Positions 11,174 through 48,829 of a DNA stretch of 64,000 nt are shown one piece after another (position 1 is the stretch's first letter; each line of letters opens with the position of its first letter). Source of the DNA: a virus (lineage: Duplodnaviria; Heunggongvirae; Uroviricota; Caudoviricetes); IMG/VR virus record IMGVR_UViG_2861079508_000001. The stretch is one strand, 5' to 3'. Under the pieces are notes generated by a model. That model had not been told where the DNA came from. It was given only the letters and a program-made list of their open reading frames with translations, and ran no database searches. The position numbers were made by a program, and so were the translations under genes.

Positions 11174-11500
11174 ATGACTAAAAATACTCGTTTTTCCCCC
11201 GAAGTCCGTCAGAGGGCGATTCGTATGGTTCTGGAAAGTCAGGGCGAATATGACTCACAGTGGGCGGCAATTTGTTCCATTGCCCCAAAGATTGGCTGTA
11301 CACCGGAGACTCTGCGTGTCTGGGTACGCCAGCATGAGCGGGATACCGGAGGCGGTGATGGCGGGCTCACCACCGCTGAACGTCAGCGTCTGAAAGAGCT
11401 GGAACGTGAAAATCGTGAACTGCGCCGCAGTAACGATATCCTTCGCCAGGCTTCCGCTTATTTTGCGAAGGCGGAGTTCGACCGCCTCTGGAAAAAATGA
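11174..11500 (+). CDS. IS3-family transposase OrfA (HTH)
   Basis: 108 aa protein [26 protein letters not shown]... recognised as IS629-type OrfA. Confidence 0.9.
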
Positions 11501-12387
11501 TGCCACTGCTGGATAAGCTGCGTGAGCAGTACGGGGTCGGACCGCTATGCAGCGAACTGCATATTGCCCCGTCAACGTATTACCACTGTCAGCAACAGCG
11601 ACATCATCCGGATAAACGCAGTGCCCGTGCGCAGCGCGATGACTGGCTGAAGAAAGAGATACAGCGCGTATACGATGAAAATCATCAGGTGTACGGTGTG
11701 CGTAAAGTCTGGCGTCAGTTGTTACGGGAAGGTATCAGAGTGGCCAGATGCACTGTGGCACGTCTCATGGCGGTTATGGGACTTGCCGGTGTTCTCCGGG
11801 GTAAAAAGGTCCGTACGACCATCAGCCGGAAAGCCGTTGCCGCAGGCGACCGCGTAAACCGTCAGTTCGTGGCAGAACGACCTGACCAGCTGTGGGTGGC
11901 TGATTTTACTTACGTCAGCACATGGCGGGGCTTCGTCTATGTGGCGTTCATCATTGATGTGTTTGCCGGATACATCGTGGGGTGGCGGGTCTCATCGTCT
12001 ATGGAAACGACATTCGTGCTGGATGCTCTGGAGCAGGCGTTATGGGCCCGTCAACCGTCCGGCACAGTCCATCACAGTGATAAAGGTTCTCAGTATGTAT
12101 CGCTGGCCTACACACAGCGGCTTAAGGAAGCCGGATTACTGGCATCAACAGGAAGTACTGGTGACTCGTATGACAACGCGATGGCGGAGAGCATCAATGG
12201 CCTTTACAAAGCGGAGGTAATACACCGTAAGAGCTGGAAAAACCGGACAGAAGTGGAGCTGGCCACACTCACGTGGGTGGACTGGTATAACAATCGACGA
12301 TTGCTGGAAAGGCTGGGCCATATCCCACCGGCAGAAGCAGAAAAAGCTTATTATGCTTCCATCGGAAACGATGATCTGGCAGCCTGA
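11497..12387 (+). CDS. IS3-family transposase OrfB (DDE integrase domain)
   Basis: 296 aa, DDE-type catalytic domain, overlaps orfA stop. Confidence 0.9.
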
Positions 12388-21806: not shown

Positions 21807-23063
21807 CTATCGAGAACCACCAAGAATAACACGGTTTTTGACTGGATACCTACGATGTACTGGATAGCCCAATGCGTCTGCACTATGCTCAATGCCACCT
21901 GTCTTATCCATATCTCGTGTTCCAGGCTTGTAGATGACTTTTTCCAGTGAATCAATCAAATGCTTGCACTTCGGATCGATATACAACCGGATATCTCCAG
22001 ATGCGGTCATCAGCATTCGGTTAACAGCATTAACACGATCCGCAATTGGCGGGTGCTTTTTCGAATAATCGACACGTAAGAATCCCTTCTCTTTGAATAT
22101 GTCGACGTCAGACTCCCCGCGAGCATGTTGGCGATAAGCACCTGCCGGATCTGGAAATACCGTTATCTGTGATTTCCAGCGCCAGAAGCGTCTCTCAAGC
22201 TCATCACAAACCTCTGCCGTGTTAGAGGAAAAGAGCACCAATTCATCAATTGCCCATAGCTCACCATTTGGCTGAGGTTGCAAAATTACTGAAGACATCG
22301 GGTCAATGTTGAAGTCCTGCCCTACCCATATAGGCAACCGAGGGTTGAACTGAAGCGGTTTTACATGCACGTTACGATCGAACGGGTAGTAAACGCGCCC
22401 GGACATGTTCTCAAAGCTCGCCAGGTACTCCTGAGCGAACGATTTCGGGTCCATATCGTTCTTAGCAGCTTCAATTTCCGCCGTAGGCACAAACGGAGAA
22501 TCGGCAGTTACAAACTGCCAGCTCTTCCACTGTCCCTTTCTTTGCAGCTCTACGTTCTGGCCTATAGTCCACAGTTTGTGAAATTCCGAGAAACCTTTTG
22601 GCGTACCAATGATAAGTGCACCGCCGCGTGTCGATGAAAGAGTAGGTCGTAACACCTTGTACCAGGTGTCAGCCTTCATATCCTGAAATTCATCAAGCAC
22701 TACAAAATGCAACGCTACGCCGCGCAGAGTGTCAGGCTTATCAGCACCTTTGAGGGCGATCTCCGAACCGTTCTTCAACACGATTGTCATCGTGGTGTCG
22801 TTCTTTTTCCTAACCCACTTACGAGGCAGAACTTCCTGTAGATCGTCCCACAAAATCTGGCGAGCCATCTGGTAAGTAGGAGCGACATACCAGACCCTTT
22901 GCTTTTTTTCCTTTGCCGCCGCACGAATAATAGTGGAGATCGACAACCGGGATTTTCCCCAGCGTCGACCAGCACAAACAACTTTAAATCGATGCGGAGA
23001 CTGGAAGACTTTCATCTGTCCAGAATGCAGTTGCACAAGACTGAGCGAGGACGGGATTGCCAT
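21807..23063 (-). CDS. terminase large subunit
   Basis: Walker A CAGRRWGKS and Walker B VVLDEF ATPase motifs; C-terminal nuclease-like region. Confidence 0.75.
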   Translation of the reverse strand: MAIPSSLSLVQLHSGQMKVFQSPHRFKVVCAGRRWGKSRLSISTIIRAAAKEKKQRVWYVAPTYQMARQILWDDLQEVLPRKWVRKKNDTTMTIVLKNGSEIALKGADKPDTLRGVALHFVVLDEFQDMKADTWYKVLRPTLSSTRGGALIIGTPKGFSEFHKLWTIGQNVELQRKGQWKSWQFVTADSPFVPTAEIEAAKNDMDPKSFAQEYLASFENMSGRVYYPFDRNVHVKPLQFNPRLPIWVGQDFNIDPMSSVILQPQPNGELWAIDELVLFSSNTAEVCDELERRFWRWKSQITVFPDPAGAYRQHARGESDVDIFKEKGFLRVDYSKKHPPIADRVNAVNRMLMTASGDIRLYIDPKCKHLIDSLEKVIYKPGTRDMDKTGGIEHSADALGYPVHRRYPVKNRVILGGSR

Positions 23064-23695
23064 TATTCGTCCTCCCCTTCACTTCCATCATCTGTCGCAT
23101 CAAATTCGCTTAGAGCTTCTTCTTCCAACGTCTCAAGCAATTCGTCATCGATGATTTCAGGCTCGTCGTCTTCCTGACGTAATTTCGCCACCTGGGAAGG
23201 CGTAAGCTCACCAAATACCAGGTTCGGAATTTCTTCCTCGTCATTTTCCGCATGATCCATGCCCAATGCTTTGGACGAAACTTCAAAGCATTTTGCAAGG
23301 GTATTACTGGCTCTCTGTAAGCTCTTGAGAGAATCCTCAATCGCCCCTAAAGGCTTACCCTCACGTTTGGCCGTAGTGACTTCGACCATCACCATCTGCC
23401 CCAACGCATACGCCCAGCCGTCATAACGTGTACGACGTTCTTCTATCTTTTCCGCACGGGCTTTAGCGCGAAGCTCTGCGTCAGATTTAAGAGACTCACG
23501 AACCATCTTCCCAACAGAGTCCGCGCCTTTCTCTAATCCTCGCTTTTTGAAATGTCTGGAGAGTGTTTCACGACGAATGCCGTACTCTTCCTCCAGCTTT
23601 GAGAGTGTATATTCGCCTGACGTCCATTTGGCTTCAGCTTCGGCCCACTCCGCTGGTGTCAGGCGAGTTTTTACCTCGTCTTTTTCGACCGTCAT
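23063..23695 (-). CDS. terminase small subunit (putative)
   Basis: 210 aa, N-terminal HTH-like region, acidic C-terminus, directly upstream of terminase large subunit. Confidence 0.55.
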   Translation of the reverse strand: MTVEKDEVKTRLTPAEWAEAEAKWTSGEYTLSKLEEEYGIRRETLSRHFKKRGLEKGADSVGKMVRESLKSDAELRAKARAEKIEERRTRYDGWAYALGQMVMVEVTTAKREGKPLGAIEDSLKSLQRASNTLAKCFEVSSKALGMDHAENDEEEIPNLVFGELTPSQVAKLRQEDDEPEIIDDELLETLEEEALSEFDATDDGSEGEDE

Positions 23696-23744
23696 AGATC
23701 CCTCTAAAACACACAGAGCGCGTCCATGCGCTCTAAAACAACTT

Positions 23745-23776
23745 GTTTACTGCATTTTCTAACCAACTTGTTTTCT
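23745..23776. promoter_or_regulatory. two copies of palindromic motif AACAA-N-TTGTT(TTCT)
   Basis: AAAACAACTTGTTTAC and AACCAACTTGTTTTCT upstream of terminase small subunit. Confidence 0.45.
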
Positions 23777-23790
23777 GGGTTGTTTAATTA

Positions 23791-23889
23791 GGTCTGGGCA
23801 TGTCTTATTAAGCCTGCTTCCGTATATATTTAATAAGTTACTTATTATTTATATATACAGAAGCAGGTCTTTAAATAAGCTCCCAGACC
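23791..23889. repeat. long imperfect palindrome (arms GCCTGCTTCCGTATATAT / ATATATACAGAAGCAGG), copy 1
   Basis: Inverted repeat read from sequence; near-identical arms recur at 47965-48035. Confidence 0.6.
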
Positions 23890-23891
23890 GA

Positions 23892-24158
23892 TTACATCAC
23901 CAGTAACTTCGCTTTGGCTCGACCTAAAGTGGTTAACCCAAGAGTTCGGCGGTGATAGCGATTGTCACTGCGTTGGCGCGTATGCCCTTTCTCCACAAGC
24001 CCCTTTTTTATCAGAGCGCGAATTGAGAACTGGATACTTTGCTTGGTTGTCTTGTACGGCAAAACTTCAAGCAATTCGTCCAGATCAAGTAGATAACCTC
24101 GCTCATAACCGAGATTGAGCGTTTTGATGATGTCCTTTTGTTTATCGGTTAACGTCAT
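23892..24158 (-). CDS. small basic protein, possible winged-helix DNA-binding protein
   Basis: 88 aa ORF, composition. Confidence 0.35.
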   Translation of the reverse strand: MTLTDKQKDIIKTLNLGYERGYLLDLDELLEVLPYKTTKQSIQFSIRALIKKGLVEKGHTRQRSDNRYHRRTLGLTTLGRAKAKLLVM

Positions 24159-46315: not shown

Positions 46316-46463
46316 GTGGACTCCATCCAGTGTCAGAAAGAGTTGCGGCTGGCGATTGCCAGCCGCCTTTCTCGTTCCATCCTGGAACTGTGTCTTACCG
46401 ACACATTGTCATCCTGACGCCGATAAGATACATGATTTAAAATGATAGGTAAAAACTTACTTA

Positions 46464-47138: not shown

Positions 47139-47636
47139 ATTACTTCCCAGAACAGGTTTTTATAAACCTGAACTGAACGAACGAAGTGAGTGAAGTTCAC
47201 CTCGAACGAAGTGAGAGGTTGTCTTTTCAGGTAATACTCTCCCAGGGAGGTGAGTATAAAAATCTCTCACCAACCTGGTCGTTTCATAACCTGAAAAGTT
47301 ATGGTCTAAGTCTACTGCCAGCTTAGACTTGGGAAGTTATGGATGACAGCACCCCAGAACCGAGATCTTCCCACACTTTATGAAGGGGAGTACTGGATTC
47401 AACCTCTCGAAACACCCCAGACTCGACAATCATAAAGTGACCCTTGTCTCTGCTCACTTTGGTTCCCCCTTCCCCGACACCTAAACGGCACCAGTTCTAC
47501 GCTGGTAGTGAGCTTTTTTAAACCTGACGCCAGTGACGCTTACCCCCACCCATCAGGTCGAGTCTCCAGTCTACGACTGGAAACTATCAGATCTTAGCAC
47601 TTACAATTCACTTTATGAATAGTTTGTACTTATCTA
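47139..47636. repeat. ORF-free ~500-bp region rich in hairpins and short direct repeats
   Basis: No ORF of 60 aa or more on either strand; repeats CGAACGAAGTGAG x2, AAGTTATGG x2, several inverted repeats. Confidence 0.5.
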
Positions 47637-47891: not shown

Positions 47892-47964
47892 AAAATCGAT
47901 TTTAAAGCGTCTGGGAAGGGGTTCTAGTGGATTCTGTTGTGATGTTCAGGTCTGGAGTCTCTGA

Positions 47965-48035
47965 TACAAAACAGCCTGCTTCCGTATATTAATAATTAAT
48001 ATGTAGTTATTTATATATACAGAAGCAGGCTAATT
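47965..48035. repeat. long imperfect palindrome, copy 2 (arms AGCCTGCTTCCGTATAT / ATATATACAGAAGCAGGCT)
   Basis: Same arms as element at 23791-23889. Confidence 0.6.
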
Positions 48036-48052
48036 ACAGACGCCAGAACAAA

Positions 48053-48646
48053 CTAAGCAGCCTTCTTTGATGGTCTTTTTTTCCTGATCACATTCGCAGG
48101 ATCATACCCTCCCAGACTTTTCATGACGTCCAAAGGGATCTTGCTTATAGAGTGCCCAGCGTCCTGACAGAATCCTCGAAAAACAACGAGCATACTGCCA
48201 CCTGGGTTGATGTTTACTTCTACCTGACCCAGATTTACGTCAGGCTCGACAAACGCTACGCGGCCACCAGACAGAATAATCGTCTCATTCGCACACTCTG
48301 TTGCACGCTCATACCACTTTGTATCTAGGGATTGAGGAATTAGCATCACTGTTGTAACTCCGCGAGCCTGCTCACGTATAGCCGCATCAATCCAGGGGTA
48401 GATTTTGGAGTAGGGTGGATTGAGGAAGGCAATTGTACCTGGCTGTCCCCATTCAGATTTCAAAGCATCACGCTCAACGCCTATGAAATTAGGCAGCTTT
48501 GCATTGTCCTTGTTGCAGGCAACGTCAACATCAAATGTCACTCCAAGATAACGTTGAATGGCAGAAAACAGCCAGTCAGGTGTTCTCCAGAGGTCACGAA
48601 GAGAGTTGTCACGCTTTCGCTGTTTGATTTTTTCGGCTGCAATCAT
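48053..48646 (-). CDS. dam: phage Dam-type N6-adenine DNA methyltransferase
   Basis: Small MTase with NPPYS catalytic motif. Confidence 0.8.
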   Translation of the reverse strand: MIAAEKIKQRKRDNSLRDLWRTPDWLFSAIQRYLGVTFDVDVACNKDNAKLPNFIGVERDALKSEWGQPGTIAFLNPPYSKIYPWIDAAIREQARGVTTVMLIPQSLDTKWYERATECANETIILSGGRVAFVEPDVNLGQVEVNINPGGSMLVVFRGFCQDAGHSISKIPLDVMKSLGGYDPANVIRKKRPSKKAA

Positions 48647-48712
48647 CTTCTTTCTCGATAGGTAAGTAAATACCTATTTTTGCATTTGATTTTATGTCTG
48701 GCAATCAAATAA

Positions 48713-48755
48713 AACGCGCCAGAAATGCAAACGAGAAGCTCTCTGGCGCGTTTTT
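48713..48755. terminator. intrinsic terminator hairpin (ACGCGCCAGA...TCTGGCGCGT plus T-run)
   Basis: long stem with T-run; intergenic. Confidence 0.5.
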
Positions 48756-48829
48756 GTGGTGCTGGGTATGTGATTGGCTTACCCAGTACTATAAAGCTCT
48801 CTATGGGCTTTATTTTAAGTAGGGGAACG

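Follow-up and report, generated by a model that had tools for sequence, protein, structure and literature searches.

Several described systems place palindromes in the gaps between genes. Intrinsic terminators and the terminator-promoter insulators of phages set a GC-clamped RNA hairpin right after a stop codon. The early RNase III sites of T7 (R0.3 to R1.3) and lambda sib are looped intergenic hairpins of ~60 to 100 nt, several of them mutually similar, placed between the genes of a single transcription unit, where they leave a stabilizing hairpin at the 3′ end. REP, BIME, and ERIC sequences are repeated imperfect palindromes that follow stop codons and can stabilize the upstream mRNA and attenuate readthrough. 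N15 carries dispersed palindromic centromere sites, and P1 has its parS site; here too the setting is a phage-plasmid with a few dispersed, conserved palindromes and ParB-like genes nearby. The palindrome considered here has features in common with each of these systems.

It lies in a 64,000-nt stretch of DNA (the window; IMG/VR record IMGVR_UViG_2861079508_000001) that belongs to an SSU5/pHCM2/pMT1-type phage-plasmid, 97 to 99% identical to Escherichia phages CMS-2020a, PhiR41_1, and Cyrano, ~85% identical to Salmonella phage SSU5, and ~80% identical to Klebsiella relatives. The initial annotation had described a nested inverted repeat of ~100 bp between the gene for the terminase small subunit and an accessory block. 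Direct reading of the sequence, a repeat search, and RNA and DNA folds compared with shuffled sequences all bear out the nested repeat, and the gene calls bear out its location. With moderate confidence, we favor the view that this palindrome (copy 1, at site 1) and its two homologs form a family of intrinsic-terminator/insulator hairpins at operon ends, within which copy 1 would be a U-poor, extended, derived variant.

Folded as RNA, the minus (sense) strand of copy 1 reaches -50.6 kcal/mol, far beyond its shuffles (z -10.6), and the plus strand reaches -45.7 kcal/mol (z -9.0); 0 of 200 shuffles were equally stable. Folded as DNA, it reaches -25 kcal/mol (z -8.1). Though AT-rich, it is in the top 4 of 4,260 sliding 110-nt windows for stability. 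The repeat search returned 39-nt arms at 72% complementarity together with an inner 16-nt pair at 88%. In the predicted RNA, stems of 17 and 7 bp are stacked coaxially with a 3×1 internal loop between them, and the outer pairing adds 8, 6, and 3 bp. The 17-bp stem has a GC-rich base of 9 to 10 bp, and the single C·A mismatch that ATATATACAGAAGCAGG carries on the plus strand becomes a U·G wobble on the sense strand. The transcript thus contains the GC-containing stem-loop of an intrinsic terminator as well as the near-continuous double-stranded RNA of at least ~20 bp looked for in an RNase III substrate. Coordinates are collected in Table 1.

Table 1. Palindrome copies and neighboring features (window positions unless another locus is named)
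Feature	Position	Strand	Remarks
Copy 1, whole nested palindrome	23791..23889	-	~99-nt sense-strand hairpin
Copy 1 outer arm GGTCTGGG	23791..23798		pairs with 23882-23889
Copy 1 outer arm CCCAGACC	23882..23889		pairs with 23791-23798
Copy 1 inner arm GCCTGCTTCCGTATATAT	23812..23829		essentially invariant across genera
Copy 1 inner arm ATATATACAGAAGCAGG	23851-23867		with added (T) to 23868
Copy 1 AT-rich asymmetric center	23830..23850		upper 7-bp stem
Sub-palindrome ATAAGT-T-ACTTAT	23833-23845		within copy 1 center
Copy 2 (site 2)	47949..48049	-	core 47974-48030
Copy 2 weaker outer arms	47949-47955; 48043-48049		GGTCTGG; CCAGAAC
Copy 2 sense-strand U-tail GCAGGC-UGUUUUGUAU	47963..47973	-	tail score -3.64
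88-aa ORF	23892..24158	-	PHROG 900; equivalent of Cyrano CYRAN_123
TerS-like DNA-binding protein	23063..23695	-	PHROG 867; first packaging/late operon gene
Small GC hairpin and U-run TAGAGCGCATGGACGCGCTCTG-TGTGTTTTAG	23714..23735	-	directly before terS ribosome-binding site
13-bp palindrome AAACAAnTTGTTT, two copies	23736-23748; 23761-23773		between large hairpin and leader hairpin
Genes in palindrome-bounded slots	L139 465-1232; L245 1623-2300; L189 4723-5526; L259 549-1307; L266 156-1049		
Putative replication-operon promoter stretch	L257 6230-6290; L245 2585-2640; L259/L260 equivalents		

All genes flanking copies 1 and 2 are on the minus strand, and both copies stand at the 3′ end of a transcription unit, as judged by the position of the stop codon. 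The hairpin of copy 1 starts 2 nt past the TAA of the 88-aa ORF, whose Cyrano counterpart is annotated as a "DNA binding domain containing protein" and which is the last gene of an operon with two ParB-N-domain proteins and ABC-type ATPases. From there it is ~95 nt to the TerS-like gene, followed by the genes for TerL and then the portal protein. For copy 2, the gene upstream is a Dam methylase ORF (48053-48646, minus strand), and the hairpin starts 3 nt past its TAG. A scan for sigma-70 promoters called none in or beside copy 1, nor in the gap that holds the site 3 copy of Cyrano.

The short gap between copy 1 and terS is itself structured. The small hairpin directly ahead of the terS ribosome-binding site has stems that vary from lineage to lineage, by eye, through compensated changes (GAGCGC/GCGCTC, CGGCGC/GCGCCG, GGCGTC/GATGCC), and its sequence, with the U-run, resembles that of a terminator or attenuator in the leader of the late operon. 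The 13-bp palindrome AAACAAnTTGTTT present twice in the same gap recurs through the window, with 14 occurrences at up to one mismatch versus 0.35 expected (starts at 23736, 23761, 32879, 33643, 34545, 35030, 36214, 37529, 37580, 41203, 44111, 44825, 45554, and 55773, 13 bp each). It is kept upstream of terS even in distant relatives and looks like a dispersed operator or promoter motif of a phage regulator.

The initial annotation had also remarked that the arms are near-identical to those of an element at 47965-48035. That element contains the core of copy 2, and the likeness holds, with arms identical to those of copy 1 over 16 nt and 23 nt and centers that differ. The 16-nt arm occurs five times in the window against 0.32 expected (both arms of the two elements plus one weak match), and a search with an nhmmer profile found no copies in the window beyond these two. 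The third site is not within the window; it falls between a ParA-type operon and an operon for a 246-aa protein, DnaB helicase, and primase; where the flank carries a co-directional gene, the hairpin begins 26 nt after its stop codon. In Cyrano, all three copies are between co-directional genes on the same strand, at ~0, 31, and 78 kb, and they delimit a late/lysis/ParA block, a replication and nucleotide-metabolism block, and a regulatory/ParB block.

The family as a whole usually consists of these three orthologous sites: site 1, site 2 after Dam, and site 3. A specific two-arm pattern found 118 viral-contig loci, and the flanks of all of them map to the three sites. In PLSDB, 799 plasmids from at least seven genera carry the element (Klebsiella, Escherichia, Enterobacter, Yersinia [pMT1], Salmonella [pHCM2], Citrobacter, and Cronobacter), as do 259 of 5,426 complete E. 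coli genomes, where it is nearly always plasmid borne. In a scan of genome contigs with the 16-base degenerate arm, nearly all of the at least 120 matches were due to chance; a Kluyvera locus (L033) was the only real one among the matches listed. The element is family-wide. Rfam gave no match at gathering thresholds, the sub-threshold matches being only eukaryotic microRNA-precursor hairpins (19 to 27 bits versus gathering thresholds of 46 to 211). The literature searched makes no mention of the palindrome and contains no mapping of SSU5-type virion ends; a paper on attC sites in phages does not concern the element, and one on phage-plasmid recombination is not relevant to it. Within that literature, the hairpin family is previously undescribed, although it is a known kind of element.

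We scored U-tails in the style of TransTermHP, over unique variants, taking the 5th percentile of the window (-2.22) as the threshold for a pass. The claim that copy 1 has no clear U-tract is borne out quantitatively: its sense tail, CUUAAUAAGACAUG, scores -1.98. Just 18% of unique site 1 variants pass, and in the E. coli, Salmonella/Yersinia/Enterobacter, and K. pneumoniae lineages tail scoring found a convincing U-tail on neither strand at this site, with scores of -2.0 (sense) and -2.2 (antisense). The U-tract of an intrinsic terminator is thus absent at copy 1 and present at sites 2 and 3, where the mean sense-tail scores of -3.16 and -3.02 fall at about the 1st percentile for the window, the pass rates among unique variants are 96% and 100%, and the antisense tails are ordinary. 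The tail sequences differ between lineages (GCUUUUUAAG, GCUGUUUUGU, GUCUUUUAAAAG, GUCUUUUUCUAU, GUCAUUUUCG); because the tails of sites 2 and 3 pass all the same, it is U-richness itself that is conserved. Copy 1 is an atypical member of the family, since it is without the usual U-run and has an extra outer stem.

Published expression data for Cyrano in LF82 bear most directly on site 3. In the per-gene table (PMC9928086 S1), the ParA operon CYRAN_28-30 has log2(FPKM+5) values of 10.1 to 10.8, while CYRAN_31, 193 nt downstream, has values of 2.3 to 4.2 on a scale whose floor is 2.32; in overnight LB, the linear values across the site are 54.6 versus 6.2 (PMC9928086 S1). RNA drops at least 40-fold over this gap, as read from per-gene counts rather than 3′-end mapping. 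The sole strong structure in the 193 nt is the site 3 copy, a 25-bp stem followed by UCUUUUAAAG, and we infer that termination causes the drop. CYRAN_99 was considered as the neighbor of site 3 and rejected. At site 1 of Cyrano, the step is merely ~2- to 3-fold, in per-gene counts at near-background expression, and CYRAN_123 (log2 up to 6.6), the gene ending at the hairpin, is ~8-fold above the preceding gene of its operon, CYRAN_122 (3.5 to 3.7), under late and macrophage conditions (PMC9928086 S1). This excess fits either a stabilized 3′ fragment or an internal promoter. Because levels at sites 1 and 2 are near background, the LF82 RNA-Seq data cannot test termination there.

These results change one part of the earlier description. 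Copy 1 had been proposed to be something other than a simple terminator; for the family, that proposal fails. Sites 2 and 3 have strand-specific U-tails, site 3 coincides with the fall in RNA just described, and about half of the distant lineages have, in the very slot of copy 1, a hairpin with a U-run. Those lineages, with TerS proteins 50 to 68% identical, usually keep a hairpin at site 1, its sequence drifted or unrelated. The slot has a U-run in 6 of 10 and a hairpin without one in 3 of 10; the left arm is lost in the remaining case (1 of 10), being missing in L261. In two lineages (L250 and L262) a recognizable 5′ arm, GCCTGaTTCTGTATgT, is followed by a long U-run, the first of them reading AGAGCCTGATTCTG...GGCTCT and then AUUUUUUUUUAUUUUUU; another (L266) has CCTGCTTCC...GGAAGCAGG plus CUUUUU. 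At site 3 of one distant lineage, an unrelated canonical terminator stands at the same operon end beside a decayed remnant of the element.

The 53-bp core of site 1, including the "loop," is near-invariant across genera, the outer-arm block is 80 to 99% conserved across lineages, and the linkers that split these blocks are only ~50% conserved. Core conservation exceeds that of third codon positions in the flanking genes, and the neighboring codons show normal third-position change. Judged from these alignments, the constraint on the core is greater than a plain terminator would need. Stem positions show compensated pairs (CG 11/UG 7/UA 2 and AU 9/GC 6/UA 1), and one lineage (L249) has a fully compensated pair, CTGCTTTCG/CGAAAGCAG. 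Because MAFFT and RNAalifold could not align the divergent linkers, covariation there is undercounted, and flank-to-flank duplex energies compared with shuffles were used. By this measure, the site 1 flanks pair at -20 to -32 kcal/mol (z -2 to -5) in each lineage lacking a U-tail (the E. coli, Salmonella/Yersinia/Enterobacter, and K. pneumoniae lineages), so pairing is retained despite unrelated linker sequences.

Two positions of the inner arm GCCTGCTTCCGTATATAT vary as discrete alleles (TTCC, TTCT, GTCT, TTTC), and these half-site alleles combine into perfect or hybrid palindromes. Hybrid, mismatched combinations are common and confer no consistent advantage on the sense strand. The asymmetry between G·U and A·C pairs is uninformative, since E. 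coli copies favor the sense strand and SSU5-type site 2 favors the antisense strand (-42.8 kcal/mol sense versus -56.5 antisense). In some E. coli genomes, the core of site 3 is the exact reverse complement of the core of site 1.

The motif TCTGGG/CCCAGA is under-represented in the window (14 copies versus ~27 expected). Nine of these copies are no more than ~1 kb away from the two palindromes, at 23774, 23793, 23882, 47146, 47353, 47416, 47910, 48111, and 48228, and in L249 three direct GGTCTGG repeats flank site 2.

Site 3 is also an exact mosaic junction: homology among E. coli plasmids starts at the edge of the core, and there are at least four alternative left flanks, including ones with and without a gene for a GIY-YIG nuclease. 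In many genomes the site 3 copy lies between divergent genes, with no obvious need for termination. Slots bounded by the palindrome at site 3 contain a LEM-3-like GIY-YIG nuclease gene, a 225-aa or 272-aa gene, a co-directional 267-aa gene, or a DUF2971 gene, and in L266 the site 1 palindrome has an inserted AbiJ/Abi_C abortive-infection gene beside it. One SSU5-type fragment, consisting of the GIY-YIG gene, the site 3 palindrome, and the start of the replication-operon leader, has ended up in an unrelated E. coli CFA/III-pilus plasmid of 141 kb, where IS elements surround it (L005; NZ_CP062888.1, 20435-20500). Downstream of site 3, a conserved stretch contains a plausible sigma-70 promoter, TTCCAA-N17-TATCAT/TATGAT, seen by eye and negative in the consensus scan.

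We imagine that the preferred mechanism, termination and insulation at operon ends, would work as follows. The nascent transcript would fold into the GC-clamped 17-bp stem with its AT-rich 7-bp upper stem, and at sites 2 and 3 the U-run after the stem would release polymerase. Plasmid-state operons (ParA, Dam, and ParB/ABC) would in this way be kept from reading into lytic operons, shielding DnaB/primase, the RNase H block, and the packaging operon. At copy 1, with its poor U-run, the 8-bp outer stem and partly paired linker would extend the hairpin to ~99 nt. It would probably be only a partial terminator, leaving a very stable hairpin at the 3′ end of the upstream mRNA that could keep 3′ exonucleases off the message or serve RNase III as a substrate. 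Any remaining readthrough past copy 1 might then meet a second barrier, the small leader terminator right before terS. Copy 1 is thus probably a leaky terminator and/or a 3′-end stabilizing or processing hairpin; what it does in vivo we infer in all aspects.

Ordinary GC-rich intrinsic terminators, unrelated to the palindrome family, are found in the gaps at 48700-48760 and 46340-46375, both on the minus strand; one reads GGCGGCUGGC...GCCAGCCGC, and the other, AAAACGCGCCAGA...UCUGGCGCGUUUUAUUU, precedes the Dam gene, which is accordingly bracketed by terminators. Since the same genome uses such unrelated terminators, the likeness of the three hairpins to one another is left unexplained by termination.

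What else might account for the element? A role for copy 1 as an RNase III-type processing or mRNA-stabilizing hairpin, setting the 3′ end and half-life of the upstream message without termination, overlaps with our preferred explanation for this copy; as an account in its own right we consider it unlikely. Either RNase III would cleave the interrupted duplex of ~40 bp, or the duplex would simply block 3′ exonucleases. Its long, near-continuous stem, the missing U-tail, and the outer stem kept in spite of divergent linkers all agree with this, as does the excess of CYRAN_123 over CYRAN_122, which an internal promoter fits equally well. However, that excess is small and was read from per-gene counts, there is no dependable sequence signature by which to recognize an RNase III site, and the paralogous sites resemble ordinary terminators. 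It is less probable still that the element works at the DNA level, as a duplex or cruciform bound by a protein of the phage-plasmid (a regulator, a ParB-like protein, or a recombination factor) or as a preferred crossover point for module exchange. The blockwise conservation of the core above third codon positions, the recombination of half-sites into hybrid palindromes, the clustering of TCTGGG motifs and GGTCTGG repeats, the exact junction at site 3, the Abi insertion beside site 1, and the two ParB-N-domain proteins and small DNA-binding protein encoded next to site 1 would all be at home in such a scheme. Yet distant relatives lose the sequence and usually keep the hairpin, the arm centers are ~38 bp apart, unlike the operator of a dimeric regulator, strand-specific U-tails have no explanation at the DNA level, and junctions at terminators are usual for phage "moron" slots. 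Given the invariant core, the hybrids, the motif clustering, the junctions, the divergent genes at site 3, and the ordinary terminators nearby, we keep a DNA-level or factor-dependent role as a minority reading. In one speculative form, which we would rate just as doubtful, the three hairpins are a co-regulated set of gates rather than passive terminators, one leading to the packaging operon, one to the RNase H block, and one to the DnaB/primase operon. A phage-plasmid factor (an antiterminator or nuclease that binds RNA, or a protein that binds DNA as duplex or cruciform) might recognize the stem, the center, and the TCTGGG/CCCAGA blocks and open them together at induction, with the cores also serving as crossover points.

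The initial annotation had raised the possibility of a packaging site, and we find it very improbable that the palindrome is a cos/pac signal recognized or cut by terminase. Its place upstream of terS is the canonical one for cos, and the linear SSU5 record (JQ965645) has both of its ends within the center of the palindrome, ~9 nt from the dyad. But the SSU5 ends join seamlessly, with no bases missing or duplicated relative to circular relatives, and palindromes are a frequent source of assembly breaks; the Cyrano record copies the SSU5 start point, the Cyrano paper being without end mapping, and the records of PhiR41_1 and other phages open elsewhere. A packaging site should also be unique, whereas there are three copies per genome, with the inverted site 3 cores of some E. 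coli genomes among them, and TerL, a Terminase_6N/6C protein, comes closest to T4 gp17 and P74-26 and is not of the lambda GpA or HK97 type. To the idea of a miniature mobile palindrome (MITE, REP, or ERIC-like) that spread within the phage-plasmid we give hardly any credence. Several near-identical copies with terminal inverted repeats, one of them on the unrelated E. coli plasmid, would suit it, but every viral-contig locus is at one of the three orthologous sites, the analysis turned up no empty sites, and target-site duplication is not consistent, with a 4-bp ATTA bordering the E. coli copy but neither the SSU5 nor the Klebsiella copies. Moreover, E. coli chromosomal copies occur only inside one integrated SSU5-like segment, and the copy on the foreign plasmid arrived together with SSU5-type flanks.

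Two further kinds of palindrome were set aside. A protelomerase target such as N15 telRL was rejected, as relatives, deposited as circular plasmids, carry the palindrome internally and in several copies per genome; an integron attC site was rejected on direct reading, the outer blocks being GGTCTGGG/CCCAGACC with no GTTRRRY core.

Elsewhere in the window, a stretch of ~500 nt without ORFs (47139-47636) lies between the RNase H gene and an 84-aa ORF. It contains the counterpart of CYRAN_81 (~47323-47457, minus strand), which in lysogeny reaches 117 against a background of 9.8 (PMC9928086 S1). The region has no Rfam match, and its expression suggests an abundant small RNA or micro-peptide locus. 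At 11455-11571 on the plus strand is an ALIL pseudoknot (RF01497, 120 bits). IS3-family insertion sequences use this pseudoknot as their frameshift signal, and its presence indicates that an IS element has inserted into the phage-plasmid.

SSU5/pHCM2/pMT1-type phage-plasmids are common in clinical Enterobacteriaceae and carry resistance and defense genes in variable slots. The three conserved hairpins provide testable landmarks for where plasmid-state operons would be separated from lytic ones. At least two variable slots (with GIY-YIG, DUF2971, Abi, and other genes) have their exact boundaries at these hairpins, which should help in annotation and in following mosaicism. If their conservation reflects a factor that recognizes them, the elements would give a handle on the lysis-lysogeny switch of the SSU5-type family.

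Set against the systems with which we began, the family is distinct from each. REP, BIME, and ERIC sequences are dispersed, whereas this element keeps to three fixed orthologous sites in one phage-plasmid family with no dispersal and, on direct reading, has no sequence similarity to them. No P1 BoxA/BoxB or sopC-like motif is visible in the sequence, and the U-tails together with the drifting sequence in relatives point to a role in RNA rather than to a centromere of the N15 or P1 type. The T7 sites R0.3 to R1.3 and lambda sib differ in that two of the three copies here carry terminator U-tails, there is no sequence similarity, and the fold of the present element is a predicted one. With intrinsic terminators and "moron" insulators the element shares the U-run at sites 2 and 3, the collapse of RNA at site 3, and the position at the boundary of a variable slot. 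Unlike the usual intrinsic terminator, it has an unusually long stem (17 + 7 bp) with an AT-rich upper part, it recurs in three near-identical copies within a genome and across genera, and copy 1 dispenses with the U-run and carries an additional outer stem.
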